From NCBI GenBank assembly GCA_963833225.1, contig CAWHXD010000007.1, positions 1 to 64,000 of the forward strand: a stretch of 64,000 nt of DNA, written 5' to 3'. The notes below the pieces were generated by a model that ran no database searches, had not been told where the DNA came from, and was given only the letters and a program-made list of their open reading frames with translations. Numbering within the stretch: the stretch's first letter is position 1; each line of letters starts with the position of its first letter. The stretch is from an uncultured Chloroflexia bacterium (GTDB lineage: Bacteria > Chloroflexota > Limnocylindria > Limnocylindrales > CSP1-4). The translations under genes and the position numbers were made by a program. Of the stretch, positions 8,688 through 46,349 are shown in pieces.

Positions 8688-8936
8688 CTATTCGCTTCCT
8701 TGCGCCACGCCTTCCGGCTCGGGGAGGCGGTGGGCCAGGATCCACACGAGCTGCGCCGTCGTCGCCGCGCCGACCTTGGACCGCGCGTTCGCCAGGTGGT
8801 GCTTGACGGTCGAGTGCGACAGGCCGAGGCGGTGGGCGGCGGCCTTCTCCGACCCGGCCTCGAGGACCGCGGCAACCACGACGACCTCACGCTCTGTCGC
8901 GCGCTCGGCGGGGCGGCGGGACGACCGTCGCGTCAT
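8688..8936 (-). CDS. Small LuxR-like HTH protein, family 1
   Basis: ATEREVVVVAAVLEAGSEKAAAHRLGLSHSTVKHHLANARSK; ATGA overlap with the LSR-tail reading frame. Confidence 0.8.
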   Translation of the reverse strand: MTRRSSRRPAERATEREVVVVAAVLEAGSEKAAAHRLGLSHSTVKHHLANARSKVGAATTAQLVWILAHRLPEPEGVAQGSE

Positions 8937-10521
8937 GCGCTCGCGGACCAGTCGCAAGGCTCGGGCGGCTCGGCGAGGCGCATCGTGATCGGAAGGTCGT
9001 TGGTGGCGGGGCTATCCCTCTCGCCCCGACCATTTCGACCTCATGAGGTCCAAAAGCCTCGGCGAGGCCGTGGTCCAGCGCTTCCTGTGTGGGTTCGAGC
9101 TTCGCCACGCTGACCCCGAGCACGCGCATGCGCTCGAAGAGCGTCGTTGCGAGGGCCCGACGATCGTCGGGGTCCGCGTCGGCCCACCACGCCGGAAGGT
9201 TCTCGAGATAGCGGCGGACCTCGTCGGGTGGCAAGGTCGGCCGCTCCGAACCGCCCGCAGCCTCGGCCTCCGCGGCGTCGAGCTCGCGCATCGTCTGCTC
9301 GAGGGCCAGGGGATCGCGATCGCGCCGGTACGTCGCAACCGCTCGCTCGCGCTCCTCCTCGATCCGGGCCAGGCGCAGCTGGTTGGGCTCTGTCCCAGCC
9401 CCTCGGCGATACGCACCCGCAGCGGCCTCGACGTCGCGCGCGCCCAGGCGGACCCGCTCCAATACGAACGGCACCATCGCCTCGTACTCGTCGCGCCCGT
9501 AGCTCTGGCCCGGGATCCGGGTGTGGCGCCCGCGGACCGAGCCGCCCGCTGGTCGGGCAGCCATGAACGCTGTACACGCGTCGAGGTGGCGGTAGCGGTC
9601 CTTGTCGCCCACGAGCCGGCGGCCGCAGGCGGCGCACGCGAGCATCGGCAGGGCATAGGTCCGGCGCGTCTCGGGCCGGCCCGGCGAGCGGCGGTTGCGG
9701 GCGGCCCGCAGGTCCGCCACGCGGCGCCAGGTTTCCTCGTCGACGACCGGGTCCCAGTTCGCCGCCGATCCGTCGCGCAGCCGGCCCCGGTACAGGGGCG
9801 AGGTGAGGATGCCCCGGATCGTGTGGAGGCCGATCCCGAGCCGGCCCGCCACCTCGCGGTCGGTCAGCCCGGCGGCGGCCAGCGCGTAGGCGCGGACGGC
9901 CGTGGCGATGCGCTCGGGATCGATCTCGACGACCCTGGCGTCGCCTGCCCGACGGAAGCCGAAGGGCGGATGGCCGCCCGGGTCGCCCCGCGTCTCGCGC
10001 TTGGCGGCGTAGCCCGCCCGCACGTTGCGGCTCTGCTCGCGCGAGTTGATCTCGGCCGCCTTGGCCTTGTCGACCAGGCGCTCCCAGTCCGCGGCGTTGG
10101 AGGAGAGGATCCGGTCGTCGCAGATGTAGACGACGACACCCTGGCGGTGGAACCAGCGCCGGTACGAGAGCGCGAGGGCGAGATCGCGCATGTAGCGCGC
10201 GGTGTAGCCGACGAGGAGGACATCGAACGCGCCCGCCTCGGCCGCGGCGAGCATGGCCCGGAACTCGGGCGTCCGCGTTGCCGGCGGATCATCCATCGAG
10301 TCGGGGCCCGACCAGCCCGACCGCCCGACCGTCCAGGCGAGCCCGGTGTCGGCGAGCCCGAGCGCCGTGATCGCGGTGTCCTGCATCCGGCGCTGCGACG
10401 GCGGTCCCCATCGATCGAGCTGGCCCGGCGTGCTCTCGCGGATCCAGCGCGCCGCCCGGAGGCCGCGCAACTCCGAGGCATCGCGCGCGAGGCGCAGGTC
10501 GGCGGCGCGGAGCGCGCTCAC
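8887..10521 (-). CDS. Large serine recombinase (the only apparently full-length copy)
   Basis: ARWIREST catalytic Ser; LLVGYTARYMRD; GGHPPFGF recombinase domain; CAACG zinc ribbon. GTG start overlaps the upstream stop; the ORF reads through the core at 9017. Confidence 0.9.
   Translation of the reverse strand: MSALRAADLRLARDASELRGLRAARWIRESTPGQLDRWGPPSQRRMQDTAITALGLADTGLAWTVGRSGWSGPDSMDDPPATRTPEFRAMLAAAEAGAFDVLLVGYTARYMRDLALALSYRRWFHRQGVVVYICDDRILSSNAADWERLVDKAKAAEINSREQSRNVRAGYAAKRETRGDPGGHPPFGFRRAGDARVVEIDPERIATAVRAYALAAAGLTDREVAGRLGIGLHTIRGILTSPLYRGRLRDGSAANWDPVVDEETWRRVADLRAARNRRSPGRPETRRTYALPMLACAACGRRLVGDKDRYRHLDACTAFMAARPAGGSVRGRHTRIPGQSYGRDEYEAMVPFVLERVRLGARDVEAAAGAYRRGAGTEPNQLRLARIEEERERAVATYRRDRDPLALEQTMRELDAAEAEAAGGSERPTLPPDEVRRYLENLPAWWADADPDDRRALATTLFERMRVLGVSVAKLEPTQEALDHGLAEAFGPHEVEMVGARGIAPPPTTFRSRCASPSRPSLATGPRAHDATVVPPPRRARDRA
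9017..9032 (+). repeat. att core 1 (tRNA-Pro 3' end)
   Basis: Exact CCTCTCGCCCCGACCA; left arm type C. Confidence 0.9.
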
Positions 10522-10820
10522 CGGGCCGAGGTGCCGGTGCGGCGGCGGACGCGGCGACGGGTGCGGGTGCGGGCCGGGGCTTGGGGGTCTGGCATCGGTC
10601 GTACGGTCATTCGGGTAGGTCGGCGGACGCGCATCGTACCCTGTCGTGACCCAGCCTTCGCGCGCCGCTCGGCGATGTGGCGGAGCCCCTCGGCGAGGAC
10701 GAAGACGAGCCGGCAGGTTCCGGGATCGTCGCCGTGCAGCGACCCCTCGAGGGGCCGTGTCTCGGGCGCCGAGGCCGCGCCGGCCTGCCGACGCCGGACG
10801 GTGCCGTGTCGCACCGTCAC
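10518..10820 (-). CDS. Small hypothetical protein between Replic_Relax and LSR
   Basis: GTGA overlaps at both ends. Confidence 0.45.
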   Translation of the reverse strand: MTVRHGTVRRRQAGAASAPETRPLEGSLHGDDPGTCRLVFVLAEGLRHIAERRAKAGSRQGTMRVRRPTRMTVRPMPDPQAPARTRTRRRVRRRTGTSAR

Positions 10821-11752
10821 GCGAGCGCCTCGTCATGGAGTTCGAGTCCACCCTCACCGAGGAGGCGGAGCCACGCGTCGGATCCGACCGGGGTCGGGCA
10901 ACGCCTCGGCTGCGGGTCGGTCAGGAGACCCCGCAGGACCGATCGCTTGGGATCGGCCGTGAGCCCGCGGATCGGCGCGTCGTAGCCGTTGGCCCAAAGA
11001 TCGGGCAGCAGGGTGACCCAGGCCTTGCCCGAGAGCCCGGGACGCCCGAGCCGGCGCCCGATGGCCGCGAGGCGCGCCGCCCGCTCGGGCGAGCCCGTTA
11101 CGAACAGGACGCACCAGGTCCTCGACCACAATGCCTTCTCGTAGCGCGCGAGCTTGTCCTCGATGACCGGGCCATGCTCGGTCGCCTCGTCGATCTCGAG
11201 GCACAGGATGGTCGAGCCGGTCGGTCCGGCCACGGCGAGGATCCCGTCGGGATAGACGCCGCGGAGGGTGTCGTGGCACATCGACTCGGTGAGCCAGGCG
11301 GTCATGACGGGACCGGTGTCGGGCTCGCCGTGCTGCGCCGCGAGCAGGGCGCAGACGGTCTCGACCCCGTTGAGGCTGTGGCGGAGCTGGGTCCCTGCCC
11401 GGCCGCGGGTGAGCGGGCCGTAGTGGAGGCGGCGACGGCCGCGGGGACTGATCCGGAAGGCGAACGGGGCACCGCCGCGGGTGACCGGGGGCAGGACGGC
11501 CCGTTCGAGGTAGCCCGCCCGGTAGAGGCGGGCGAGGCGTTCCTGCGCCGTCTGGCGGCGGTGGTAGACGAGGGCGGTCAGCTGGGTGGTCGTGGCGACA
11601 TCGGCGCGATACAGGATGCGCAGGGCTGCGCGGTCACGGTAGGTCAGCAGACCCGGGTCCACGATGGCCCGGGCGGGAGGCGCCGGCGCGGCAGCGAAGG
11701 CACCGATCATGGGTGTGTGGGGTCCCGGGTCGCGGCCGTCGCGATCGAGCAC
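10817..11752 (-). CDS. Replication-relaxation (Replic_Relax) family protein
   Basis: N-terminal wHTH, QLRHSL, YPDG..LCLEIDEATE..IEDKLARY. Confidence 0.8.
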   Translation of the reverse strand: MLDRDGRDPGPHTPMIGAFAAAPAPPARAIVDPGLLTYRDRAALRILYRADVATTTQLTALVYHRRQTAQERLARLYRAGYLERAVLPPVTRGGAPFAFRISPRGRRRLHYGPLTRGRAGTQLRHSLNGVETVCALLAAQHGEPDTGPVMTAWLTESMCHDTLRGVYPDGILAVAGPTGSTILCLEIDEATEHGPVIEDKLARYEKALWSRTWCVLFVTGSPERAARLAAIGRRLGRPGLSGKAWVTLLPDLWANGYDAPIRGLTADPKRSVLRGLLTDPQPRRCPTPVGSDAWLRLLGEGGLELHDEALA

Positions 11753-12349
11753 GAAACCCCGTGCACCGAAGGCGTGCCCGGAACGCGGGCCGCTGCCCCC
11801 ATCCCTGCCAGACGGGCGGCGTCGGAGCGACCGGTATTGCTGGCGTTGACTGTGCGGACCACGGTGATCATGGCGTGGGCGACCTCATAGAAGGACTGTG
11901 CGTACCTCGATTTCGACGAAGCTGGCCGCGTTCCAAGGTCCGGCGATCGGGTTGACCCCGCAGGTGCTCGCGCATGGGAGCTCCGACGGGGTCGACACCG
12001 GGTCCGCCTGACCAGCCGCAGCGCAGGCGTCAGGCCGCTCGTCACGCGGGACCGTCTCCGGCCGCCGGGGCGTGACCCCTGGCGCGGTCGCGATGGGTGG
12101 CGACTCGACGGGACGAGGTGCGCCACCGGGACGGGTACCCGCGGACGACCGACGCGACGTCAGCCGCCGAGCTCCAACCGTACGCCGCTGTCCGGCTCGG
12201 CTCAAGGGGGGCTTGTGTACCGGCGTGCGTCACGAGGTTCCACCTGCGGAGCTGTCAGCCGGTACTGAGGAGCGGCACGGATCTGGACCTCGCCGCCCGC
12301 AGCGCCGCCGATCGATCGGGTCCTGCTCGCTGGCGGCCAGTCGGGTGGT

Positions 12350-12608
12350 CCCGCGTGATCGCTGGGACGCTTTCCTCGCGCAGCGCGGCGACGCGTTCCG
12401 CGCGGCCACCGGCGCCGAGATGAGCCTCGAGGCGGCCATCCACCAGTACGGCGGCTTCCGCTACCGCGAGCACTGGGACGTCGGCGATGTCGTCACCGTG
12501 CGCAACGCGGAGCGAGCCATCAGCTAGGCCGCCCGTGTCGTCGAGGCCAAGGAGCCACAGGTCGCCCGGCTTGACGTACGGCTCGTCGGACGGCTCGGGC
12601 AAGGTCAC
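12350..12608. pseudogene. Phage gene scraps: tail-protein-like C-terminus (+) and ParB-MTase piece (-)
   Basis: YREHWDVGDVVTV on +; LPEPSDEPYVKPGDLWLLG on -, homologous to the gene at 1-569. Confidence 0.5.
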
Positions 12609-12682
12609 TTGACTGATGTGTCCGGGGGGGCGATCCTGCCCTTCGCGTCCCGGTGGACTGGCTGTCGCAAGGGGAGGAGTCC

Positions 12683-13945
12683 ATGAGACGCTCCAGCACA
12701 GGGTCGGTGCCTCGGTGGGCGAGTAGCATCCGCATCGTGGCGTTCGTGCCTTTCCTCCTGGGAGGCTGCATCCAGCCGGTGGGGGAGGTCACCTCTCCCG
12801 GGTCCTCTGAAGTTGTGGCGGAGTCGCACTCGCCCACTGCTTCCTTCTTGGCAGCAACACCTTCCGCTGTCGCGTCGTCTCCTACCCTGACGGTCGAGCC
12901 GTCTCCTACTCCTACCGCCGTCGTCCCTTCCGACCGCAGCGTGGCGATCGTGCGGGCTGCGACGGCAGATCACGCGCCGGCTGCGCTGGCTGGTCGTTCC
13001 TGGGTGGCCGCGTTGTCGGGCTCGACCTTGGCAAGGTCGTCGGGCTCGACCCTGGTCGGTCGCATCGGCGACCGGGACCGCATGCGGCTGAAAGGGCCGG
13101 TCCTCGCTGTCACCCCGTCGCTCGTCATCGCCGCGACGGTCGCCTCCGACGGGAGCTCGACGAGGATCGACGTCCTGAGCCGCGTCGACGGCGATCCGGC
13201 CCTCGAGTCGGTCGCACTGCACGGGCAGATGAGCGTTGGCGCTGTCGCGGGCGATCGACTCTACGTGACGGGTTATGCCGCCGACTTGTATGGGGACCCG
13301 GGCGTATTCGCGATCTCATTGCTGGACGGCACGGTCACTTCGGTGATCGAGTCTCGTGAAGTCCCCGAGCGTTCCGCTCCGATAGCGCGCAGCATGCTCG
13401 TTTCGCGATCGGGCAACACCCTGATCTCGAGTGTCTGCACGATCGGAGGCGGTTGCAGCGGTGGCAGCGTGATCGACGCCGCGTCCGGCCGCCTCGTGGC
13501 CGAGCTGGCCACGGGCGATGGGCCGTCGGCGCTCAACGACGCCTATGCGCTCGTTCGAAGCGGCGGCGACGTCACGACGAGCCTGGCGCTGTTTGACTGG
13601 CGGAACAACCGGGAGTTGTGGCGCTTGACTGGAGATGAGTTCGGCTGGGCCTACGTGACCGACGCTGGCGTCGTGGTCGCCGGGGTTGGCGACCGACTGG
13701 GCAAGATCAGCCTGGACGGCCGTGTCGACTACTCGGCGGAACTGCCTGGCCGGTCACCGACGCTCTGGCCGGCGCTGTCGACCGATGCCCTGGTGGTCGT
13801 GGGCACCAACGGCCCGTTCCCTGGGAACCCCCGTGAGGATGGGGTGCTTGGAGAACATGGGGTGGTGCAGGCCACGGTGGTCGACCTGCGTGATCTGAGC
13901 GTCGAGGCCGATGCAATCACGATCGACCTCAATACCCAGTCCTGA
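12683..13945 (+). CDS. Secreted lipoprotein, beta-propeller-like
   Basis: GGAGGAG RBS; LLGGC lipobox; S/P/T linker; repeated beta-blade motifs (IDAASGRLV, LFDWRNNRELWR). Confidence 0.65.
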   Translation: MRRSSTGSVPRWASSIRIVAFVPFLLGGCIQPVGEVTSPGSSEVVAESHSPTASFLAATPSAVASSPTLTVEPSPTPTAVVPSDRSVAIVRAATADHAPAALAGRSWVAALSGSTLARSSGSTLVGRIGDRDRMRLKGPVLAVTPSLVIAATVASDGSSTRIDVLSRVDGDPALESVALHGQMSVGAVAGDRLYVTGYAADLYGDPGVFAISLLDGTVTSVIESREVPERSAPIARSMLVSRSGNTLISSVCTIGGGCSGGSVIDAASGRLVAELATGDGPSALNDAYALVRSGGDVTTSLALFDWRNNRELWRLTGDEFGWAYVTDAGVVVAGVGDRLGKISLDGRVDYSAELPGRSPTLWPALSTDALVVVGTNGPFPGNPREDGVLGEHGVVQATVVDLRDLSVEADAITIDLNTQS

Positions 13946-13974
13946 TCGTTTCCGTTCCGGTGAGGTCCGTCGAA

Positions 13975-15042
13975 ATGCAGCACACTCGGCTGGCGGTAGC
14001 TATGGGCGTCCTTCTCGCAATCTCAGCCGCCGGCTCGGCGCTGGCTCGGTCCCCAATCACGACTGGTGCCAAGCGCAACTTCCACGGCCACGATCCAGTG
14101 ACGTACCAGCGAGCTGGTGCGGGCGGCGCGGCATGGTGGGCGGATACGGTAGATATCGAACTTGAGGACAACTTCCATAGCCTCAACAAGAACAACACTG
14201 GCCTCCCGTGGTTGGATCATGACGGCTCCGGAACGGCAACGGTCATCTATCGCGACCAGACATACTCCCCCTGTGGCACAGAAAGCAGCGGTTGGCTGGC
14301 GTGCGCGGACAACCCGCAGAAGAACGAGAACTGGATCGTCTACGTTCGCGACCTAAGTCCGGGCGCAGAACACCCTATCGTAGGCGGGGTCTGGAAGGAG
14401 GAAACGGACAGTTGCAGTGGAAGCAGCGCCTGCTGGTACCTCAAGCGCGCGCTAATTCATGAGTTGGGGCACGCGATGGCGGCCCTCAATCACGCGGACA
14501 ACCGACCTGAGAGCGACACTGTCATGAATCCCAATGACCCTCCGATCGGCGCGTCTCAAGGAGGCTACGACCACTACAGGTTCCAGCCATGTGATGAAGC
14601 AGCCGTGCAGCTCGTATGGGACCTGTACGACAAAGGCGAACACTACGCCGACTGCTTCACCTCGGGCATTGACAATCTCGGGCCCACAGGACTGAAGACG
14701 CGGTTGACGACTGCCTACAGTACCTTCTACGCCTGTCCGGGGGAGACAGTGGGGGTCACAGGCAGGCTCGACGTCTGGGACTATGACTCCTACAAGAAAC
14801 TCGGAGGCAACGGGCTGTGGGATCGGAAGGTGTGGTTTGACCGCTTTTCGACGACGCACTATGCGTCCGCCGTCGTAGCCTCAGGCGGTGGCGACAACTG
14901 GGCAAAGAACCTCCCCACCGGCAACTACGAGGTCTACTTCGACCAAACTGATGCCGGTGCTGCCGACGCCGGGAATGGACTAAGCGATTCCGCCAGCATT
15001 GGGTTCACCGTGGTTCAGCTGAACCCAGGCGCCTGCCAGTAG
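13975..15042 (+). CDS. Secreted metzincin-like zinc metalloprotease
   Basis: Signal peptide; HELGHAMAALNH followed by a Met-turn (TVMNP). Confidence 0.75.
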   Translation: MQHTRLAVAMGVLLAISAAGSALARSPITTGAKRNFHGHDPVTYQRAGAGGAAWWADTVDIELEDNFHSLNKNNTGLPWLDHDGSGTATVIYRDQTYSPCGTESSGWLACADNPQKNENWIVYVRDLSPGAEHPIVGGVWKEETDSCSGSSACWYLKRALIHELGHAMAALNHADNRPESDTVMNPNDPPIGASQGGYDHYRFQPCDEAAVQLVWDLYDKGEHYADCFTSGIDNLGPTGLKTRLTTAYSTFYACPGETVGVTGRLDVWDYDSYKKLGGNGLWDRKVWFDRFSTTHYASAVVASGGGDNWAKNLPTGNYEVYFDQTDAGAADAGNGLSDSASIGFTVVQLNPGACQ

Positions 15043-15169
15043 TAGCTGCGCATCGCCTCGCGCCGCGCGGCTGCCCCCGGTCGTTGGTGAACGCCTCACG
15101 CCGCTGTGCGGACTGGAGTTGCCCCGGTTTCATGGACGGTGAACTCTTTGCATGATCAGGCGACCAGGG

Positions 15170-15250
15170 GCCTCGGAACCGGACGCTCTTCTCGCTGGCC
15201 GAGGCGAACGCGGCGATCCGCGAGCGCCTCGTCTGGCTCAACGAGCAGAC
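15170..15250 (+). pseudogene. IS21 istA fragment
   Basis: RNRTLFSLAEANAAIRERLVWLNE. Confidence 0.55.
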
Positions 15251-15259
15251 GAGGTACCG

Positions 15260-15347
15260 CGTAGGGGTCGGAAACCCCGATTCGCGCTCAGATCAGCCCG
15301 GTACGATCGGCTGATGTGGTTCCTCGTCTACCTGCTCACCCGCACCC
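15260..15347 (+). repeat. Left end of an integrase-core IS; inverted partner at 16503-16597
   Basis: GGGGTCGGAAACCCCGATTCGCGCTCAGATCAGCCCGGTACGATCGGCTGA is mirrored at about 16543-16593. Confidence 0.8.
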
Positions 15348-16502
15348 TGAAGGGTTCAACAATCAGGATCACGCTGCCCGGCGGTACTCGTGGATCAGCC
15401 CGCCGAGCACGTCTCTTCGTTCGACCAGGGTTGGGGTGGCACCCGTAACCTGGGCTGGTCGGATGCCGGCCGGCACGGCAAGACCCAGGCCCCGGTGCGG
15501 TCTCTCGTCGACGTAGTGCGTCGACGTACGCCCCGAGCACGTGCTCGAGATGGCGAGGGCCGTAGACCAGGACGTGGTCGAGGCACTCCCGGCGCACGGT
15601 CCGCACAAACCGCTCCGCGAAGGCGTTCGCCCGAGGTGCCCGGACCGGGGTTCGGATGACGCGGACGCCCTCGGCGCGGAGCACCGCATCGAACGGTCCC
15701 GTGAACTTGGTGTCCCGGTCGCGCACGAGGAACCGCACATCCGACAGCCGCTCCTCGATGGCGAGGTTCCGCGCCTGCTGGGTGACCCAGGCCGAGTCAG
15801 GGTGTGCGGTCACGCCGGCCAGGTGCACCCGTCGCGTGGAGAGCTCGATGAAGAACAAGGCGTAGAGGGTCCTGAGACCGATCGTCTCGACGGTGAAGAA
15901 GTCGGTCGCCCAGATCCCCGCTGCCTGTGACCGCAGGAACTCGGCCCACGTCGGGCCACCCCGGCGTGGAGCAGGGTTCATGCCGTTGCGCAGGAGGATC
16001 GTCCGGACCGTCGTCGCAGAGATCCTGATCCCGAGCTTGCGGAGCTCCCCGCGGATCCGCTGGTATCCCCAGCGCGGGTTCTCCCGGCCGAGTCGGACGA
16101 CGAGGTCCCGGACATCGGGCCCGATCGGCGGGCGTCCGGGGTGCCCTGTCCGCCGATACGTCCACTTCCTCCGGGCGAGTTCCCGGTGCCAGCGCAGCAG
16201 GGTCTCCGGCCGCACGATGAACGACGACCAGCTGCCTCTCGGCAACCCGGTGCTCGCGGCCGCGAGCAGGACCCGGTCGAGACGGTTGAGCCTGGGACGC
16301 TTGACCTGCCGCTGGAGCACCTTCACCTGGTGGCGGAGCACGAGGAGCTCGATGTCCCTCGCAGCGTGTTGGCGACCTCCGGCTCCGAGGAGACGGCGGA
16401 CCAGGAAGTAGAGGAGCGAGAACAGCATGGAGCTCCTTCGGCCGTGGGAAACCGCATGCTACAGGTGCAGTTGACACCAGAATCGGGAAACTGAACCCTT
16501 CA
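15348..16502 (-). mobile_element. IS with rve integrase-core transposase (IS3/IS481-like), copy 1, frameshifted near the 3' end
   Basis: TIR TGAAGGGTTCA/TGAACCCTTCA; DFF, RDRD and NAFAER motifs; one extra base near 15519 relative to copy 2. Confidence 0.85.
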
Positions 16503-16851
16503 GGGCGACAAGGGTGCGGATGAGCAGGTAGACGAGCGACACTCAGCCGATCGTACCGGGCTGATCTGAGCGCGAATCGGGGTTTCCGACCCCCACGGGG
16601 CCACATGCCGCTGCGGAGCGATCACTGCCAACGTCGCTCTGCTGGCGCTGGACGAGCTCGACGCCTGACGCGCACGCGTCTACGGTGAGGCCGTCGCAGG
16701 GACCGAGCGTGAGCACGATGGCTTCCCAAACTGCACGGTATGACAGCCACGAGCATCGAGGCTTAGGGTGTTTTCTGGAGAGCGACCCAACCGCGAGTAG
16801 GCGGCAAGGGTAGTAATAGGTGGAATGGTGGGCCTTCCCAATCTTCACGCG

Positions 16852-17340
16852 ATGTTGCGACCGTCCTCGCGGACGGCGCGACTCGATGCTGCGGCGTTCG
16901 CAGAAGCCGTGCTACCGCGCATGCCGGCGATGCTTCGGTTAGCAGCCCGCCTGGGCCCCCAAGACGCATTCGAAGACGTTGTCCAGGATGCGCTGATCCG
17001 GGCCTGGCGCCATCGTTCAAGCTACGACGAACGTCGGGGCACCCTCTCCGCTTGGTTGATGACCATCGTGGCGAACGAGGCGCGGCGTGCGCACTCGCGG
17101 AAGAGGCGGCCGCTGGCTGTCTCCCCCTTTGCGGCGCCTGCAAGCGAGGACGGGAGCATCGACCTCGAAGCAGCCCTCGGGGATCTGGCACCACGGCAGC
17201 GCCTGGCGGTCGACTGCCACTACTTCGCCGGTTTGTCAATTGGCGAGACCGCGGCCGTCATGAGGTGCAGTGAGGGGACGGTCAAGTCGACATTGTCTGA
17301 TGCCCGAGCTCGACTACGCGATTACCTGGAGGAACGCTAG
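16852..17340 (+). CDS. ECF sigma-70 factor
   Basis: EDVVQDALIRAWR, AWLMTIVANEAR, GLSIGETAAVMRCSEGTVKSTLSDAR. Confidence 0.9.
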   Translation: MLRPSSRTARLDAAAFAEAVLPRMPAMLRLAARLGPQDAFEDVVQDALIRAWRHRSSYDERRGTLSAWLMTIVANEARRAHSRKRRPLAVSPFAAPASEDGSIDLEAALGDLAPRQRLAVDCHYFAGLSIGETAAVMRCSEGTVKSTLSDARARLRDYLEER

Positions 17341-18345
17341 ATGGCAAGCGATGCTGATATCGATCGGATGCTGTTGGAGCACGCAGCGCGATGGCAGGCA
17401 ACCATCCGCACTAACGCCTCCATCGATGTGGGGACATTTCGTGGCGGTGCGTCACGTGGACCGTTTGCGGTCGCCATGATCACCGTTGCAGCCTTCGGAG
17501 TCGTCGCAGCAGCGGTCGCGGTGAATTCAGTTGGCCCCTTGACACCCGTCGCCGAACCCGGGTCGAGCCGTTTCCCGGCGCGAACCGACGCAACGTTGTC
17601 GGCAAGCACGGCGCCGCCGAATGGCCTCCAGGACGATGTCGTCGGCATCGGCGATGTCGTTGTCGCAACCGGGACTCTGGTCGCGACCGGACCCACGGAG
17701 GGGTTCATTTGCACGGAACTTGCTTGGGCAGGAGAGTGGCCCGTTTGCGCGAGCTCGACGGGTGTGCCGGTCCGCCTGAACGACGACGCCTTGGGTGGGC
17801 AATACGTCAAGGTCCGAGGGGTCTGGGATGGCACGTCGATCGAAGCTCGCGAAATCACCCCGGTCGACGAACCTCCGCCGGAGCCGCTTCCCCGGATCGC
17901 TTGCCGCGCCCCCGCCGATGGCTGGCCTGGTCAACCCAGGGGCGATGATGGGGAGTCGGTGGTTCGAGCTCTTGAAACAGAGTTGCTGCGTCACCCGGCC
18001 CTCTATGTCGGTATGTGGTCGGGTGTCGCCGACTCGGGAGGCGCGGCTGGCGACGTGCGCGTGCTCGTCGTCGGCACTGTCGGGAGCGTCGACGCAGCAA
18101 CCGATGAACTAGCCAAGGTCTACCCCTTCAACTTCTGTGTCGTCCCGGTTGAGTTCAGTGCCGATGATCTCACTGTCGTGGTGTCTAGCCTGTCGTCGTT
18201 CGAGTTCCCATGGAAGCTTCAACTTGATCCTGCGATTGACCGAGTGGTCATCACGACCAACGCCCTGAGCCAGGCAATGGCTGACGCTCTGGCGAGCCTC
18301 GCTGACCGGATCGAGCTGCGGACGCATGTAAGGAGGGACGGGTAG
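17341..18345 (+). CDS. Membrane-anchored hypothetical protein (putative anti-sigma factor)
   Basis: Abuts the ECF stop; one TM helix plus an extracellular domain. Confidence 0.6.
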   Translation: MASDADIDRMLLEHAARWQATIRTNASIDVGTFRGGASRGPFAVAMITVAAFGVVAAAVAVNSVGPLTPVAEPGSSRFPARTDATLSASTAPPNGLQDDVVGIGDVVVATGTLVATGPTEGFICTELAWAGEWPVCASSTGVPVRLNDDALGGQYVKVRGVWDGTSIEAREITPVDEPPPEPLPRIACRAPADGWPGQPRGDDGESVVRALETELLRHPALYVGMWSGVADSGGAAGDVRVLVVGTVGSVDAATDELAKVYPFNFCVVPVEFSADDLTVVVSSLSSFEFPWKLQLDPAIDRVVITTNALSQAMADALASLADRIELRTHVRRDG

Positions 18346-18522
18346 GGCGACGCCGCACGCGGTGGCTTCGCTGGGCGGATGCTGGCGGTGGTCCGAACGG
18401 GAGTGCACCTCGGCCCTCGCGCCGGGAATCAGGGCCTGGCCACAGCGCGACGCACGGTTTCGCAAGCGCCCGCTAACCGTGCGCTCGCGGAAACCCACTG
18501 TGCGTATCCGACGAAGGTCACC

Positions 18523-19015
18523 GGTCGCGTCCTGAGACCGCTGTAAAAGTGAAGACGGCGTAGGCTCCGAAGCGGACCTTGGAAGTTCGCATCAGGAGAC
18601 CACGCCGTGGATCGAAGAATAGCCCGAAGCGTCCAGATCGAGGCCGCCATCGAGGCGGCCCTGCTCAACGGGACCGGTGGTCCCGACCAGCTCTCCGAGC
18701 TCGGCCGCCTGGGTGCCCAGCTCATCCTCCAGCGGGCGGTCGAGGACGAGCTCGAAGCCTTCCTCGGACGCGCCCGGTATGCCCGGAACCCCGATGCCGC
18801 AGGCTCCCGCAACGGCACCCGCCCGCGGCGGGTCCAGACCGCCGAGGGCGAGATCACGGTCGCCATGCCCCAGGTCCGCGACACGCTGACCCGGTTCGTG
18901 AGCTCGGTCATCCCCGACACCCGGGCGGTCGTGCGGACCCGGCCCCTCGAAGCGCTGGTCATCGGCGCCTACGTCCGGGGCCTGAGTGACCGGGACATCG
19001 AGAGCCTCGCCCGGG
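18523..19015 (+). mobile_element. IS256-family element, 3'-truncated
   Basis: End GGTCGCGTCCTGAGACCGCTGTAAAAGT resembles the IS256 IR; transposase from 18607 with SRNGTRPRRVQTAEG and AYVRGLSDRDI. Confidence 0.8.
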
Positions 19016-19027
19016 TGGGAATGATCA

Positions 19028-19657
19028 CGTCAAGCGGCCCCACCGTGATCACGAGTTTTGGCCCCACCCCCGACCGATTGGTGGGTCTCTGACGGGCTGC
19101 TGATCAGGCGGCTGGCGACCCCTCCTTCCGCTTGCCCTGGCTCGTCCGAAGCCGGTACGACGAGGTTCCGGTCTCGAGGATGTGGGCCCGGAAGGTGAGC
19201 CGGTCGACGACCGCGGCAGCGAGCCGTGGGTCGGTGAATGTCTGGCCCCACTCGCTGAAGGGGGCGTTGCTGGCGACGGCGATGCTGGCCCGCTCGTCGC
19301 GTTCGGTGAGCACCTGGAACAGGAGCTCGGCACCCCGCCGGTCAAGGTGCAGGTACCCCAGCTCATCGAGGCAGAGGAGGTCGATGCGGCCGTACCTCCC
19401 GATCACCTTGGACAGCTCGCGCTCGTCCTCGGCCTCGACGAGCTCGTTGACGAGAGCGGCCGCCGTCACGTAGCGGACCCGCAGGCCCGCCTCGCAGGCG
19501 GCGATCCCGAGCCCGATGAGCAGGTGCGTCTTGCCGGTCCCCGAGTCGCCCAGGAGCACGACCGGTTCGCCGGCGCTGATCCAGGCACCCTGGGCGAGGG
19601 TCGCCAGGGCAGCCGGTTCGATCGAGGGCGTGGCGCCGAGGTCGAACTCCGACAGCC
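19028..19657 (-). mobile_element. istB: IS21 right end with 5'-truncated istB (CDS 19104-19657)
   Basis: GDSGTGKTHL Walker A, LLCLDELGY Walker B, AVVDRL, SSYR; terminal GGCCCCAC repeats. Confidence 0.85.
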
Positions 19658-20811
19658 TGAAGGGTTCAACAATCAGGATCACGCCGCCCGGCGGTACTCG
19701 TGGATCAGCCCGCCGAGCACGTCTCTTCGTTCGACCAGGGTTGGGGTGGCACCCGTAACCTGCGGTGCTCGGTGACCTGCCGGCACGGCCAGGCCCAGTC
19801 CCCGGTGCGGTCTCTCGTCGACGTAGTGGTCGACGTACGCCCCGAGCACGTGCTCGAGATGGCGAGGACCGTAGACCAGGACCTGGTCGAGGCACTCCCG
19901 GCGCACGGTCCGCACGAACCGCTCCGCGAAGGCATTCGCCCGAGGTGCCCGGACCGGGGTCCGGATGACGCGGACGCCCTCGGCCCGAAGCACCGCATCG
20001 AAGGGCCCCGAGTACTTGGTGTCCCGGTCGCGCACGAGGAACCGCACACCCGACAGGCGCTCCTCGATGGCGAGGTTCCTGGCCTGCTGGGTCACCCAGG
20101 CCGAGTCAGGGTGTGCGGTCACGCCGGCCAGGTGCACCCGTCGCGTGGAGAGCTCGATGAAGAACAAGGCGTAGAGGGTCCTGAGACCGATCGTCTCGAC
20201 GGTGAAGAAGTCGGTCGCCCAGATCCCCGCTGCCTGTGACCGCAGGAACTCGGCCCACGTCGGGCCACCCCGGCGTGGAGCAGGGTTCATGCCGTTGCGC
20301 CGGAGGATCGTCCGGACCGTCGTCGCAGAGATCCTGATCCCGAGCTTGCGGAGCTCCCCGCGGATCCGCTGGTATCCCCAGCGCGGGTTCTCCCGGCCGA
20401 GTCGGACGACGAGGTCCCGGACATCGGGCCCGATCGGCGGGCGTCCGGGGTGCCCTGTCCGCCGATACGTCCACTTCCTCCGGGCGAGTTCCCGGTGCCA
20501 GCGCAGCAGGGTCTCCGGCCGCACGATGAACGACGACCAGCTGCCTCTCGGCAACCCGGTGCTCGCGGCCGCGAGCAGGACCCGGTCGAGACGGTTGAGC
20601 CTGGGACGCTTGACCTGCCGCTGGAGCACCTTCACCTGGTGGCGGAGCACGAGGAGCTCGATGTCCCTCGCAGCGTGTTGGCGACCTCCGGCTCCGAGGA
20701 GACGGCGGACCAGGAAGTAGAGGAGCGAGAACAGCATGGAGCTCCTTCGGCCGTGGGAAACCGCATGCTACAGGTGCAGTTGACACCAGAATCGGGAAAC
20801 TGAACCCTTCA
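19658..20811 (-). mobile_element. IS with integrase-core transposase, copy 2 (intact CDS 19679-20737)
   Basis: Same TIR as copy 1; 352-aa ORF. Confidence 0.9.
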
Positions 20812-21398
20812 AGGTCGAGGACGACCCCCGCCTTGCGTTCGAAGTCGGGGTCGCGCGGAAAGAGCCAGCTCCGGTACGTCCACGGCCGCAGGGCGTCCTC
20901 GCGCAGCCAGCGCCAGACGGTCGTCAGGCTGATCGTCGCCACGATCTCGCGGCGGACCGCCTCGCGGGTGATGTCGGCGACGGACAGGCGCGCGAGCGGC
21001 AGACCCGCATCGCGCGGGCGCTCACAGGCGAGGGCCTTGATCTCGACCACCACCCGAGGGGGAAAAGGTCCGCGGCCGGCCGGACCGCGGGCGATCGGCG
21101 AGACCCGCCGCGCGATCCTCGAAGAACCGCTTGCGCCAGCGGCTCACGGTCGTGCGCACCGTGCCCAGGCGCTCGGCGATCTCATCGTTGCGCAGCCCGT
21201 CGGCCGCGAGCACGACGATCTGGGCCCGGAAGACCTCGCGCCGGCTCGCCGTCTGGCGGCGCGCCCGGCGCTCCAGGTCGGCTCGCTCCTCGGGTGTCAG
21301 CTCGATCCGGTACGGGCTCCGTCTCGACATCGGCTCCTCATCTCGGAGGAATCGTAGCTGCCGCCATTACGTCGCGCAACTTAGGAGTCGGTGTACTA
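20812..21398 (-). mobile_element. IS630-family element, truncated by IS copy 2
   Basis: HTH ORF 21022-21330 (RTTVSRWRKRF..DRPRSGRPRTF); TTTTCCCCC slippery site; second frame RSWLFPRDPDF; end TAGTACACCGACTCCTAAG. Confidence 0.8.
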
Positions 21399-21444
21399 GC
21401 CATGCTCACCATCTCCGCTTGCGCTGCGCACCGTCCTGAGCAAG

Positions 21445-21466
21445 ACTACTCAACATGGTGAGTAGT
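21445..21466. promoter_or_regulatory. Palindromic operator over the ATPase start codon
   Basis: ACTACTCA-6nt-TGAGTAGT. Confidence 0.45.
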
Positions 21467-22674: not shown

Positions 22675-22764
22675 GGAGCCGGACCCGATGGTCAGGGTCC
22701 CCGTCAGTGCGGGCCGGGGCGGTTCGGTTCGATGGCCGCCGTCATCGAAATCGTCGTCGCGACT

Positions 22765-22780
22765 CCTCTCGCCCCGACCA
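22765..22780 (+). repeat. att core 2
   Basis: Exact; left arm B; right arm is an LSR stub (AHGWDAAFGSGDQSISIGRSGRGE). Confidence 0.9.
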
Positions 22781-32746: not shown

Positions 32747-32818
32747 TGCCCGCCGGACAGGCTTGACGCACCAGGCACAGACACGTACGCTAGGACGTAC
32801 GTACAAGGGAGGCCGACC

Positions 32819-33400: not shown

Positions 33401-33416
33401 CCTCTCGCCCCGACCA
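33401..33416 (+). repeat. att core 6
   Basis: Exact; arm A variant. Confidence 0.9.
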
Positions 33417-35830: not shown

Positions 35831-35846
35831 CCTCTCGCCCAGACCA
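35831..35846 (+). repeat. att core 8
   Basis: One mismatch (CCTCTCGCCCAGACCA). Confidence 0.8.
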
Positions 35847-35888
35847 GCTCGCTTCAGCACCGGATTCGTGCGTGGATTCATGCCCAGG

Positions 35889-37265
35889 TCAGGCAGTGGC
35901 GCTGCTGACCCACCGCTCCGTGCCCGTCAGAGCGAGCTCCAGCGGCCATGAGACCGGGACACTAGGGTCGGTACTGGTGGTTTGTCTCCTCTCGCCCCGA
36001 CCAGATCGACCAATCGAGATTGATTGGTCCCCAGCCCCGAAGGCTGCATCCCATCCGTGGGCCTTCGCGCTGGCGGTCAGCGTGAACGAGAAGTCGGTCG
36101 CCCCCAGCACGTCGATCCGCTCGAACACGGCTTCCGCGATCGCGTGCCGCCCGGCATCCGAGGTCTTCGCCCACAGCTCTGGCAGCGACTCCAGGTACTC
36201 CCGCGCCTCGGCGGCGGTCGGGATGCGTGACGGGCGGACCACCGCAGCCTGAGCCTCGGCGTCGAGCCGCGCCATCGTCGCCTCCAGCCGACCGAGGTCG
36301 CGATCCTTCGCGAACCGCAGGGCCGCCTGGTCACGCTCCCTGGTGATGCGGGCCTGGGCCAGGACGTCTCCGTTGTCGGGCTCCGGTCGCCTGGCCAGGG
36401 CGACCGTGCTGGCCTTGAGCGTCGACGAGACGGCCACGTGCTTGAATGCGAGGCCGATCGCGTCCTCGTACACCTCGACCTTGTAGGACTCGCCCTTGAC
36501 GCGGTGGTCGAGGTTCGTCTTCGCATTGCGCCGGTGGCGGCGCGGGGCAGCCGCCCGAAACGCCTCGCAGGCGTCCAGATGGCGGTACCGCCCGACGTGG
36601 CCGGTCAGGCGGCGGCCGCAGGCCGCGCAGGCCAGGAGCCCGGCAAGGCCGTACTGGCGGCGGTTGACCCCGCCGCGGTGCCGGCGGCTGTACCGGGCGC
36701 GCATCGCCTGGACGTGCTCCCAGGTGCCGGCGTCGACGAGCGCGCCCAGGGCTGACGGCTCGCCGGTCCGGAGGCGCCCCACATAGAAGGGGTTGGTCAG
36801 CACCTCCGCGACGTGCGTCGGCGCGAGGCCCGTGGCCTTCCCGACCTCGCGGTCGGTTCGCCCGCCTGCCGCGAGCTCGTAGGCGCGGCGGACGAGGCAA
36901 GCGCTCCTCGTCGACGGTAATCGTCCGGCCATCCCGCACCGTCCCCAACGGCGCCTTGTTGCCGCCCGGGACGCCGAGCCGCCGGCGCTTCGCCGCATAG
37001 CCCTCCCGGATCCGCTTCGCCAGCCGCCGGCTGTACGCCTCGGCCTCGACCGCCTCTCGGGCCCAGCGCTCCCACTCGTCCTCGTCGGTCGAGAGGACCC
37101 GCTCGTCGGCGAACAGGATCACCGCGCCTCGGGCGTGGAGGTCGTGGCGGGCGTTGACCGCGGTCCGCAGGTCCCGGGCGAAGCGGCTGACATAGCCGAC
37201 GACGAGGACCTCCCAGTCCTCGCCCGCGCCGGCGAGCATCTCCGCCCACTGGCCGGTCGCCGCGA
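35889..37265 (-). pseudogene. LSR, 5'-truncated, frameshift near 36900
   Basis: VLVVGYVSRFARD, zinc ribbon; reads through core 9. Confidence 0.85.
35988..36003 (+). repeat. att core 9
   Basis: Exact; arm A; right arm homologous to that of core 2. Confidence 0.9.
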
Positions 37266-37289
37266 TCGTCCGCCCCGAGTGGGCAACCT

Positions 37290-37360
37290 CGTGGGGGTCA
37301 GAAACCCCGATTCGATCACGCAGCGACTCGGTCGTGCTCGTGGATCAGGCCGCCGAGTGC
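37290..37360 (-). mobile_element. Right-end remnant of an integrase-core IS
   Basis: GTGGGGGTCAGAAACCCCGATTCG plus LGGLIHEHDRVAA*. Confidence 0.6.
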
Positions 37361-38843: not shown

Positions 38844-38859
38844 CCTCTCGCCCCGACCA
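38844..38859 (+). repeat. att core 10
   Basis: Exact; arm A. Confidence 0.9.
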
Positions 38860-41846: not shown

Positions 41847-42068
41847 ATGACGAAGGTGCGGACGACCCTGACCATCGACCCCGAGGTGCTGCGCGCGGTC
41901 AAGGTGCGTGCCGCGCGTCTGGGCAAGGGCGACAGCGACGTGATCGAGGAGGCCCTCCGCCGGGATCTCGGGCTTGACCTGCTCGACCGGCTGTGGGCGG
42001 CCAATGACCTCGATGAGGCCGAGGCGCTCGCGCTCGCGAGCGAAGCCCAGCACCGAACGCGCGCCTGA
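41847..42068 (+). CDS. RHH antitoxin
   Basis: VRTTLTID..SDVIEEALRR, upstream of a PIN gene. Confidence 0.8.
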   Translation: MTKVRTTLTIDPEVLRAVKVRAARLGKGDSDVIEEALRRDLGLDLLDRLWAANDLDEAEALALASEAQHRTRA

Positions 42069-42080
42069 CCACGCCGCCGC

Positions 42081-42488
42081 GTGCGCGCCGTCCTCGACAC
42101 CAACGTCCTCATCTCGGCGATTCTCTCACCGCGCGGGACACCCGCCCGGCTTCTGCTGGCCTGGCAAGCCGGAGCGTTCGACCTCGTCGTTTCGCCGGCC
42201 CTCCTGGCGGAGCTGCGCCGGGCGCTCGCGTATCCGAAGCTCGAGCGGCTCGTCTCGCGGTCGGATGCCGATTCGTTTGTCGCCTGGATCGGCCATTCGG
42301 CGGTGCTCGCCACGGATCCGGAGGGTGAGCCGCCCGTCCACGCGGCAGATCCGGCGGACGACTACCTGCTCGCCCTCGCGGCCTCGGAGCGGGCGGTGCT
42401 CGTGTCTGGTGACGCCCACCTCACCGTCCTGGGCAACCGGTTCCCGGTCCGGACGCCGGCCGACTTCCTGGCGTCGCTGGAGACGTAG
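42081..42488 (+). CDS. PIN family toxin
   Basis: VLDTNVLISA, DPADDYLL, LVSGDAHL. Confidence 0.9.
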   Translation: MRAVLDTNVLISAILSPRGTPARLLLAWQAGAFDLVVSPALLAELRRALAYPKLERLVSRSDADSFVAWIGHSAVLATDPEGEPPVHAADPADDYLLALAASERAVLVSGDAHLTVLGNRFPVRTPADFLASLET

Positions 42489-42523: not shown

Positions 42524-42539
42524 CCTCTCGCCCCGACCA
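42524..42539 (+). repeat. att core 11
   Basis: Exact; arm B. Confidence 0.9.
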
Positions 42540-42804: not shown

Positions 42805-44115
42805 ATGCCACGGTACGTCGAGCGGACTTGGGCGGGCGACCCGGGCGCGATGGGGGGACGCCGGGCACGAACGTCGTTCCGCTTCCGAGCATTCGTGCCG
42901 GACGACATCGCCGGACTGGCGCCCGTCGTCCCCTTCGAGGTGGCCGGCCTGGCGGCGGATGCTGAGGCCACGATCCGGGCCCTCAACGAGCGTGCCTCGG
43001 TCGGCGGCCTTGAGGCGATCGGCCCGTTGCTCCTCCGGGCGGAGGCGGTCGCCTCGTCGCGCATCGAGGGCTACGAAGTCTCGTCGCTCAACCTCGCCCG
43101 GGCGCTCGTGGATCCCCGAGCCGCGCGCGGGAGCGCCCGAACGGTGGCCGCCAACGTGTCGGCGATGGAGGAGGCGATCGCCATCGCTGACGGCGACCGG
43201 CCGATCGCGATCGACGACCTGCTAGCGATCCACGCGATCCTGATGTCCGGCGACGAGCGGGCACGGCCCGGTAACCTCCGCGACGAGCAGAACTGGATCG
43301 GCGGCCGGCTGGACAGCCCGCGCGACGCCGCATTCGTGCCCCCGCCGGAAGACCTGGTGCCCGCGTTGCTCGAGGACCTCGTCGCCTTCATCGCGCGGGA
43401 CGAGCTGCCCGCCGTCGCCCAAGCCGCGATCGTCCACGCGCAGTTCGAGACGATCCACCCGTTCATCGACGGCAACGGGCGCGTCGGCCGCGCGCTGGTC
43501 CACGTGGTCCTGCGCCGGCGGGGGGTTGCCAGTCGGTTCGTGCCCCCGGTCTCCATCGTGCTCGCGGCTCGTCCGGCGTCGTACATCGATGGGCTCACCG
43601 CCTTCCGCGAGGGACGGCTCTCCGACTGGATCGCCTCGTTCTCCGGGGCGGCGGCCATGGCTGCCACGGTCTCGATCGACCTCGCCGACCAGGTGGCCGG
43701 GCTGCAGGCGGCGTGGCGCGAACGGGCCGGCCGACCGAGGGCCGGTTCGGCGGCGGCGAAGCTCATCACCCTGCTGCCGGCACTCCCCGTCCTCTCGGCG
43801 CCGACGGCCCGCGTTGCCATCGGTGTGAGCCAGCAACAGACGCTCGCTGCGCTCAAGGCGCTTGCGGACGCAGCTGTGGTGCACCAGATCAGCGGCGGCT
43901 CGTACGACCGGCAGTACGCGGCATCCGAGCTGTTTGACCTGCTCACGGCATACGAGGCCCGGGTCGTCAGCAGGATCGGCCAACGGGGATGGGGTAAGGA
44001 CGGGGCGACAGACGGGGCGACAGGTCAGATGACACCGCAGCCGCCAGCGAGCCGGGATATTGAGGTCGATCGTGGAGGTTTGTCTCCTCTCGCCCCGACC
44101 AGATACGCCAGTTGA
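42805..44115 (+). CDS. Fic family protein
   Basis: SSRIEG and HPFIDGNGRVGR. Confidence 0.9.
   Translation: MPRYVERTWAGDPGAMGGRRARTSFRFRAFVPDDIAGLAPVVPFEVAGLAADAEATIRALNERASVGGLEAIGPLLLRAEAVASSRIEGYEVSSLNLARALVDPRAARGSARTVAANVSAMEEAIAIADGDRPIAIDDLLAIHAILMSGDERARPGNLRDEQNWIGGRLDSPRDAAFVPPPEDLVPALLEDLVAFIARDELPAVAQAAIVHAQFETIHPFIDGNGRVGRALVHVVLRRRGVASRFVPPVSIVLAARPASYIDGLTAFREGRLSDWIASFSGAAAMAATVSIDLADQVAGLQAAWRERAGRPRAGSAAAKLITLLPALPVLSAPTARVAIGVSQQQTLAALKALADAAVVHQISGGSYDRQYAASELFDLLTAYEARVVSRIGQRGWGKDGATDGATGQMTPQPPASRDIEVDRGGLSPLAPTRYAS
44086..44101 (+). repeat. att core 12
   Basis: Exact; arm A. Confidence 0.9.
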
Positions 44116-45667: not shown

Positions 45668-45680
45668 GGAAGGCTTGGCG

Positions 45681-45800
45681 ATGACCGGCACCTGGCTGTC
45701 GATCCGCGTCGACCTCGTCGAGGGTCGCGGGGAGCGCCTATGGCCGCGACCCGGACGGATCTTCGCGGCGGCCCGGAGCCACACGTTCGCCACCCTCCGA
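45681..45800 (+). pseudogene. pRiA4b ORF3-like N-terminal fragment
   Basis: TWLSIRVDLVEG..PRPGRIFAAARSHTF. Confidence 0.5.
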
Positions 45801-45922
45801 TCGCACGGCGCACGGACGGAAGCGCAACTTCACGAAGCTGCTGGACAACGCACGATGGTGACGGCTCCGGCATAGATCGTGCCCGGCGAGGTCGCCAGGT
45901 GGGAGGCGTGCACGAGATCCGG

Positions 45923-46349
45923 TCAGGCGATGGAGCGGTCGCGTAGCCACCGTGCCGAACCAGTCAGAGCGATGCTCAACGGCAAGGAGACCGGGACATT
46001 AAGGTCGGTCGTGGAGGCCTGTCTCCTCTCGCCCCGACCAGATCGACCTTCCTTCACGCGGACGACGCCGGCCCCGAAGGCCGCGTCCCATCCCCGGGCT
46101 TTCGGTTGGGCGGTCAGCGTGAATGTGTAGTCGGTCACTCCCGGGACGTCGATCCGCTCGAACGCGGCCTCGGCGATCGCGTGGCGGCCGGCGTCCGAGG
46201 TCTTCGCCAACAGCGCCGGCAGCGACTCCAGGTAGGCGCGTACCTCGGCGGCCGTTGGGATGCGTGACGGTCGGACCACCGCCGCTGCGGCCTCGGCGTC
46301 GAGCCGCACCATCGTCGCCTCGAACCGACCCAGGTCGCGATCCTTCGCG
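45923..46349 (-). pseudogene. LSR 3' stub
   Basis: 46025-46349 is identical by eye to 25427-25751. Confidence 0.85.
46025..46040 (+). repeat. att core 13
   Basis: Exact; arm A. Confidence 0.9.

Follow-up and report, generated by a model that had tools for sequence, protein, structure and literature searches.

The stretch analysed here (the window) comprises the first 64,000 nucleotides of contig CAWHXD010000007.1 from an uncultured Chloroflexia bacterium, with a G+C content of 70%. It contains 16 copies of a 16-nucleotide core repeat, CCTCTCGCCCCGACCA, with at most one mismatch, all on the plus strand from 9017 to 61964. The 20-nucleotide form of the core, CTCCTCTCGCCCCGACCAGA, gave 14 matches with at most three mismatches, again all on the plus strand, where shuffled sequences would be expected to give 0.02. 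Successive cores are 157 bp to 13.7 kb apart, and no further copy is present on the contig. To the right of four cores lies a gene, or a piece of a gene, for a large serine recombinase (LSR), located on the minus strand and reading leftwards over the core into the adjoining arm. As proposed in the initial annotation of this DNA, the attachment core lies inside the recombinase open reading frame (ORF). This is the case throughout the LSR family, and the C-terminus of the enzyme is set by the neighbour that lies beyond the core.

The core is identical to the final 16 bases of tRNA-Pro(CGG), which make up the 3' strand of the T stem, the 3' strand of the acceptor stem, the discriminator base and CCA. 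ARAGORN found no tRNA genes in the window; the tRNA-Pro sits on another contig, C6 (370221-370297), and its 3' end is the sole other exact copy of the core in the genome. It is directly followed by a 3.4-kb stretch that is 93% identical to the LSR end of element 1 of the window (9018-22766). This copy (locus L001, C6:370221-374845) includes the LSR, frameshifted near its end, and the neighbouring Replic_Relax (replication-relaxation) gene, and contig C6 ends 4.5 kb further on in sequence resembling an insertion sequence (IS). Therefore, the stack of cores in the window probably begins at the C6 tRNA-Pro, and C6 may join the window's contig. At the level of sequence, the direct cores at the element ends and beside the tRNA would be the genomic footprint of LSR recombination; its 2-bp crossover would fall somewhere within the 16-20 nt over which the cores are identical.

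The completeness of the LSR genes was scored against a profile of 22 homologs with 515 positions. The only intact LSR in the window is that of element 1, located on the minus strand with its 3' end to the right of core 1 (9017-9032). Its conserved part (8980-10494) covers profile positions 3-505 in a single frame and matches the Pfam Resolvase family, and the protein is 92-93% identical to homologs of 516 amino acids. The ORF (8887-10857) continues to a stop at 8887 and reads core 1 as VGARG, one base off the GRGER register, in line with the different frame noted for it initially. The three LSRs that had been cited as the examples of core-crossing frames turned out to be truncated or frameshifted remnants. 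At core 3 (25427-25442) the minus-strand remnant (25388-26314) covers profile positions 205-508 only, so that ~200 N-terminal residues, with the catalytic domain, are missing. The remnant at core 7 (35988-36003) lies on the minus strand in two frames (35958-37293), with profile positions 197-505 at 35958-36902 and 56-199 at 36892-37293, and it has lost ~55 residues at its N-terminus, among them the catalytic serine. At core 11 (46025-46040) a C-terminal fragment covers profile positions 379-508 only (45986-46381, minus strand). A 59-nt trace of an LSR 3' end is also found right of core 2 (22783-22841, minus strand); it is 94% identical to the stretch right of core 7 (repeat family D12).

The enzyme is a large serine recombinase with a resolvase-type catalytic domain, a recombinase domain, a zinc ribbon and an inserted coiled coil, the same domain set as in the integrases of SPbeta, Bxb1, phiC31 and Listeria LI/A118. 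PF00239 (Resolvase) matched the window LSR with an E-value of 1.7e-07 as well as the homologs P0113 and P0080, and the R-E-S residues of the catalytic domain are invariant in three homolog alignments (A1, A2, A3). PF07508 (Recombinase) gave no match on the window LSR at E <= 0.001; it scored just above the cut-off on P0113 and P0080 and is among the precomputed matches of several homologs. Three cysteines and one histidine are invariant in the homolog alignment, and the AlphaFold2 models of P0113 and P0080 contain long paired helices at ~325-405. When the P0113 model was submitted to Foldseek, the SPbeta, Bxb1, phiC31 and LI integrases were retrieved with E-values of 6e-13 to 3.5e-07, the matches including 9y66, 9dxh, 9iu2, 9rah and 4kis.

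On the minus strand, the frames that end at 25328, 35889 and 45923 translate the core as GRSGRGER, followed by RQTSTTDPNVPVRLSLEIALTGG, RQTTSTDPSVPVSWPLELALTGT and RQASTTDLNVPVSLPLSIALTGS, respectively, up to a stop 32-33 residues past the core in the left arm, exactly as initially described. They end in class A tails, read from the core 3 remnant (25328-25426; RQTSTTDPNVPVRLSLEIALTGGARSIGGAIA and stop), the core 7 remnant (35889-35987) and the core 11 fragment (45923-46024). Same-frame tails of similar length, open for 27-30 residues, were likewise confirmed in the left arms of cores 1, 13 and 4, which had been numbered 1, 15 and 5 in the initial annotation. All three lie on the minus strand. 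The arm of core 1 encodes the class C tail DSPATNDLPITMRLAEPPEPCDWSASA with its stop in the GRGER frame (8933-9016), joined in frame to no LSR in the window; that of core 13 (53257-53272, one mismatch) a second class C tail, HRPAANDLPITMRLAEPPEHSEWLQSA and stop (53173-53256); and that of core 4 (31137-31152) the tail ARASLTQQSLRFVMINRTPRDLLPATARSA in the GRGER frame (31044-31136), whose stop and the start of the gene after it overlap. The intact LSR reads the class C arm in the VGARG frame and gains from it a tail of 42 residues (8887-9016, minus strand), which overlaps the start of a helix-turn-helix (HTH) gene. Since class C arms belong to GRGER-frame elements, this left neighbour is foreign to the intact LSR, as had been supposed. 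At the far end of element 1, marked by core 2 (22765-22780), the class B arm (22704-22763, minus strand) encodes in the VGARG frame VATTISMTAAIEPNRPGPH and stop, which would be the tail of the intact LSR in a circle.

To place the window in the context of the family, 8000 candidate proteins were scored, among which 305 relatives were found at E <= 0.001, and the C-termini of the best 120 were sorted. A scan of species, one genome each, confirmed 259 relatives; 80 of them were retained, representing 79 distinct loci, and the LSR frame at each locus was assigned by profile search. The core-encoded motif was present within the last 120 residues of 114 of the 120 homologs, in either the GRGER or the VGARG frame, and the core was found on the LSR strand with at most two mismatches at 71 of the 79 species loci. 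In the GRGER frame, 28 homologs end in GRGER-I and three in GRGER-T immediately before the stop, and 32 have a tail of 10-38 residues. In the VGARG frame, 13 homologs continue into the antisense of the tRNA (FEPPTSSSRTMRATKLRHAPTE...), 12 have a tail of 4-7 residues and 26 a longer one. No core motif was seen in the last 120 residues of the other six.

In the species loci and the window, an antisense tRNA-Pro borders 16 LSRs read in the GRGER frame and 15 in the VGARG frame; ARAGORN called the tRNA in most of these cases. For the GRGER-frame LSRs a stop then comes from the T loop (TTCAAAT) one codon past the core, giving the end GRGER-I, while in the VGARG frame the ORF traverses the entire tRNA in antisense as VGARG-FEPPTSSSRTMRATKLRHAPTE. 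Beside element arms the tails are ~20-40 residues long, and when the element is circular or has a like element as its neighbour, the LSR frame stays open across the core and enters the element-borne arm. At the level of reading frames, the claim that integrated and free forms encode different C-termini therefore holds, close relatives having a single isoleucine, tRNA antisense or an element-arm tail after the core motif. For instance, the homolog P0080 has a tail of 29 amino acids, and P0071, P0073, P0093 and P0104, which are 79-81% identical to it, end in GRGERI. Multiple cores per locus were also present in other Limnocylindria-type genomes (L019, L021, L022, L027, L052, L060, L065, L072 and L097). 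Stacks at tRNA-Pro are thus common in these genomes, and the two frame types are often mixed. Separately, three more distant homologs, P0089, P0115 and P0119 (44-45% identity), lack the tRNA-Pro core motif, yet have a strand-like C-terminal stretch ending in alanine; these enzymes may have a different target, and their split may be lacking or lie at another place.

Circles were built in silico on the assumption that each element extends to the nearest upstream core. For element 1 this gives VGARG-VATTISMTAAIEPNRPGPH and stop, a tail resembling those of the homologs P0011, P0029 and P0036, so the cognate tail expected from the initial annotation was regained. All four VGARG-frame circles (element 1 of the window, L021, L022 and L028) have a class B arm at the far end, and all four regain tails of the type V(A/R/K)TTI(S/T)(M/I), like those of the same three homologs. 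All six GRGER-frame circles (L045, L060, L073, L076, L082 and L089) regain tails in their own frame, 29-32 codons from the core.

To assess whether the element-borne tails are protein, the 70 non-tRNA arms of the window and the species loci were clustered into 33 groups. In the non-class-B clusters, an open run of 25-46 codons, a range set after inspection of the data, was found in the GRGER frame in 16 of 25 clusters and in the other two frames in 6/25 and 3/25, while random positions on the same strands were open for 25-46 codons 16% of the time. The ratio of nonsynonymous to synonymous differences (pN/pS, by NG86) was summed over pairs in the LSR frame and in the frames shifted by +1 and +2, the pairs being non-independent and drawn from 3-5 short sequences. 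In the LSR, +1 and +2 frames, respectively, it was 0.59, 1.18 and 1.18 for the whole class C tail (two window copies and two other species), 0.50, 2.07 and 0.97 for the L052-type, and 0.32, 1.45 and 1.67 for cluster 6, which is in the VGARG frame. For class D the values were 0.75, 0.92 and 1.19, and for class A, which includes the three tails cited initially, 0.87, 0.80 and 1.13. The dN/dS check proposed initially thus gave no sign of selection for the very tails cited, which appear to drift, and did so for class C, the L052-type and cluster 6, which look like real protein. Within class C, a block of 17 codons chosen post hoc, PATNDLPITMRLAEPPE, is almost invariant as protein, with 24 synonymous and 3 nonsynonymous pairwise differences (pN/pS 0.04). 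The eight codons that follow it, ahead of the conserved (S/T)A-stop end, are hypervariable, with a pN/pS of 1.8 (window positions 8936-8959 and 53176-53199). Over all arm classes, 204, 178 and 249 changes were counted at codon positions 1, 2 and 3 (p = 0.002), a third-position excess of little weight, since protein-guided alignment is biased towards it and classes B and D were poorly aligned.

Other features of the tails also resemble those of protein ends. The peptide LVTMGGA.PPL..VRSA, followed by a stop, is reached from the VGARG frame in P0038, P0042 and L059 and from the GRGER frame in P0103, the two versions diverging over the first ~9 residues past the core. This would be expected if the peptide, not the DNA, is kept. 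The final residue is alanine in 25 of 32 long GRGER-frame tails (glycine in five) versus 1 of 25 tRNA-antisense or short VGARG-frame tails, and 15% of random ORF ends; in the DNA set all four GCN codons are used for it. An ssrA-like degradation tag was considered and rejected, as the tails end mostly in RSA, RTA or xxA rather than in LAA and none is like the tmRNA (transfer-messenger RNA) tag of this genome, ANKQPALALAA. AlphaFold2 predicted ordered structure after the core: in P0113, which has a class C tail (mean predicted local distance difference test score, pLDDT, 84), a strand at 494-500 (LPITMRL; block pLDDT 71), and in P0080, which has a 'QIRGC' tail (mean pLDDT 80), a hairpin formed by 488-492 and 495-499 (block pLDDT 85), both from alignments that are shallow in the tail. 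The core-encoded GRGER lies inside a segment with pLDDT below 50 in both models (residues 476-486 in P0080). A floppy linker at this place, as modelled, would account for the core being readable in either frame.

In two groups of arms, the stop of the tail is linked to a following gene. In all seven arms of this kind, five of class C and two of cluster 8, the tail stop shares one base with the ATG or GTG that follows (ATGA or GTGA), and all seven next genes have Pfam matches to GerE-type or other HTH proteins or to ParB_N. In the window these are a small GerE/LuxR-type HTH gene (8688-8936), whose ATG overlaps the first class C tail stop (ATGA), a second GerE-type HTH gene (52931-53176), whose ATG overlaps the second, and the small HTH gene (30799-31047) coupled to the core 4 tail, all on the minus strand. 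The four close class C arms encode GerE-type HTH proteins of 80-82 residues and the class C arm L093 another HTH protein; of the cluster 8 arms, that of the window encodes the HTH protein at 30799-31047 and L033 a ParB_N protein. The homologous tails of 31044-31136 and L033 therefore precede different genes, both starting at the tail stop. Judged from the sequence, in the circular form the LSR and the next gene would be one translationally coupled unit across attP, the attachment site of the element, and after integration the coupled gene would lie at the element's other extremity. Such coupling was not accepted as general, since in arms other than those of class C and cluster 8 the ORFs at tail stops are rich in arginine and resemble translations of a wrong frame.

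We consider it probable that the region is a stack of elements targeting tRNA-Pro whose LSR genes contain the core, that the element-borne tail is native, and that integration mis-tails the enzyme. The region would then be a head-to-tail stack of integrative elements and decayed remnants, produced by LSRs directed at the 3' end of tRNA-Pro(CGG). The crossover core would lie ~20-40 codons ahead of the natural stop of the LSR gene, and once the element is integrated and linear, the post-core codons would be found at its other end. That the element-borne tail is a native protein end has moderate support in several lineages; the native C-terminus would form a short beta strand or hairpin, preceded by a disordered linker that the core encodes. 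If so, integration would yield a truncated or mis-tailed isoform, which by analogy with Mx8 IntX would most likely be altered in activity or stability, favouring staying integrated. In some arm classes, integration would also break the coupling between the LSR and a small gene of HTH or ParB-like type. Several points weigh against this, beside the limits given above for the pN/pS values and the AlphaFold2 alignments. Class A tails have no frame-specific constraint and that of class D is weak, while class B DNA is invariant over the first ~8 codons and neutral after (~1.0), the pattern expected for a half-site bound by the recombinase and not for a peptide. For excision from the tRNA site, the enzyme has to function even when its native tail is missing. 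Foreign pairings are common, with ~10 VGARG-frame LSRs standing beside class D arms and having tails of 7 amino acids. In 24 public sequencing runs, searched as contigs only, at most 0.13 of the sampled words were found, and no 22766/9018 joint was seen in the four runs compared with 8500-23500, which carries no weight either way. We further put forward, as a tentative idea that may well be wrong, that this widespread family of serine integrases carries a built-in sensor of the integration state. Only the circle or a like-stacked element would make the full hairpin enzyme, the truncated tRNA-integrated isoform would differ in directionality or stability, and the downstream regulator would be switched too. 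If this were true, the direction of recombination would be set without a separate directionality factor.

The tails could instead be meaningless read-through, the functional LSR ending approximately at the core and conservation resulting from P arm binding and shared descent. Indeed, at 70% G+C the median open run at random positions is 57 codons, the tRNA-antisense tails are plainly accidental and all three tails cited initially hang on pseudogenes; classes A, B and D show no or weak frame-specific constraint, and two frames cross the same core, so that the core residues are not conserved as protein. Read-through does not account for the three arm classes with a frame-specific pN/pS below 1, nor for 25-46-codon tails in 16 of 25 GRGER-frame clusters compared with the 16% expected and the 6/25 and 3/25 of the other frames. 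A terminal alanine encoded by all four codons, one tail peptide reached from both frames and the ordered strands predicted by AlphaFold2 also speak against it, and we regard it as unlikely. A different function for the open frame would be expression: ribosomes would cross attP and hand over, stop to start, to the HTH or ParB-like gene in the circle only. The one-base overlaps in all seven class C and cluster 8 arms with their Pfam-matched genes fit this, as do the homologous tails that precede an HTH and a ParB_N gene. Coupling alone, however, would not conserve amino acids, as seen in the 24 synonymous versus 3 nonsynonymous differences of the class C block, and most other arms have no credible coupled ORF. 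As the only explanation of the tails it is very improbable; it is compatible with native tails rather than exclusive of them.

Another possibility, to which we assign a low probability, is an integron-like platform in which a resident LSR inserts and shuffles recombinase-less cassettes, the tails being the cassette-side halves of the sites. The 16 direct cores, the single intact LSR and the many units with only one or two genes (four toxin-antitoxin pairs, PIN, Fic and two AAA_14/DUF4143 genes) would agree with such a platform. On the other hand, four units contain an LSR remnant at the same place and in the same direction, a sign that once-autonomous elements have decayed; the arm classes go with different LSR frames, and no promoter-and-platform arrangement was identified. 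Cassette circles were not seen in the four public runs compared either, which again carries no weight.

The arrangement has parallels among tyrosine recombinases, a family unrelated to the enzyme studied here. As in IntP/IntX of Mx8, for which Tojo 1996 and Magrini 1999 are said to be the primary papers, the crossover core is inside the integrase ORF and the C-terminus differs by state. According to PMC6070905, attP of Mx8 lies inside the integrase gene, and integration gives a new 3' end and altered behaviour, not inactivation. The elements described here differ in using an LSR, which has another mechanism, in exchanging what would be a short strand or hairpin after a disordered linker, and in reading the same core in two frames in different lineages. 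The SSV-type integrases of archaeal viruses and plasmids, also tyrosine recombinases, have the recombination site inside the integrase ORF as well (PMC7253208 and PMC4383910). There, integration splits the gene into two inactive pseudogenes, whereas here the last ~20-40 codons are exchanged and the recognisable domains stay intact. The design is therefore the Mx8/SSV principle in an unrelated enzyme family. In contrast to the integration-dependent immunity of mycobacteriophage BPs and its relatives, the split gene is the recombinase itself, and its RSA or RTA tail ends are not tmRNA-tag-like. The piece of the BPs repressor that is lost on integration is reportedly an ssrA-like degradation tag. 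The attachment site of BPs lies inside the repressor gene, and the integrated and free states encode different proteins (PMC4557955).

In phage-type large serine integrases, directionality is reported to be set by a separate recombination directionality factor (RDF) protein acting on the coiled coils, and in phiC31 integrase the extreme C-terminus adds an acidic patch to the RDF interface. By analogy with phiC31, an effect of the tail on directionality is conceivable. Our literature search, which was thin on subscription journals, retrieved no report of attP inside the integrase gene or of tail exchange for serine integrases, and no report linking a large serine recombinase with tRNA-Pro. Accretion at tRNA genes, where stacks of elements and recombinase-less remnants (cis-mobilizable elements, CIMEs) lie between direct att repeats, is described in PMC5704250; the stack in the window, at a tRNA 3' end, is similar, while the described cases use tyrosine integrases. 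Integration of serine recombinases into tRNA genes is called rare in PMC3218068, with the AICEs (integrative and conjugative elements of actinomycetes) of Mycobacterium in tRNA-Leu and phage phiRSM in tRNA-Ser, and unknown in PMC4383910; the present family adds a large set of tRNA-targeting serine integrases.

The one-directionality of serine integrases is an active question, with coiled coils and directionality factors as subjects of studies dated 2025-2026, and an enzyme whose C-terminus is rewritten by its own reaction would be a natural experiment on it. It could also offer a design principle for self-limiting integrases in genome engineering. There is in addition a practical consequence: gene callers extend LSR ORFs into tRNA antisense (13 of the 120 homologs) or into neighbouring elements, so the C-termini given in databases for this LSR family are context artefacts.

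The other cores of the window are core 5 (33401-33416), core 8 (38844-38859), core 10 (44086-44101) and core 14 (54302-54317), which have class A arms like cores 3, 7 and 11; core 9 (42524-42539), core 12 (47142-47157) and core 15 (60221-60236, one mismatch), which have class B arms like core 2; core 6 (35831-35846, one mismatch), 157 bp from core 7; and core 16 (61949-61964), the last on the contig. The unit between cores 6 and 7 (35831-36003) contains scarcely anything beyond a single arm. Small HTH genes like those behind the tails recur as diverged copies left of core 1, at 4573-4950 and 7942-8153, together with a possible decayed core, CGCCACGACCAG, near 4935-4950. Both come from weak alignments; older, eroded units may therefore extend the stack leftwards. 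Two LSR-matching contigs from two unrelated public metagenome runs both start exactly at 9017, the first base of the core, which fits the core as a junction or repeat boundary in relatives too.

Element 1 holds, in addition to the LSR, the adjoining Replic_Relax gene (10817-11752), a gene for an extracytoplasmic function (ECF) sigma factor and two near-identical copies of an rve-type IS (15328-16428 and 19679-20737); because of the Replic_Relax gene, it may be able to replicate or be mobilised. The stack as a whole also contains four toxin-antitoxin pairs of the types Phd/YoeB, RHH/PIN, Phd/PIN and MazE/PIN (pairs at 32738-33321, 41847-42488, 46349-47097 and 54422-55074), a lone PIN gene (47313-47705) and a Fic gene (42805-44115). 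Further cargo comprises the two AAA_14/DUF4143 genes, a chromate transporter pair, several transposases or IS copies and assorted metabolic and regulatory genes. An integron proper was rejected, as no tyrosine integrase was found among the 63 window ORFs scanned and the repeats are tRNA-derived LSR cores. The layout of 16 cores does recall integron arrays, yet the sites are those of a serine recombinase.

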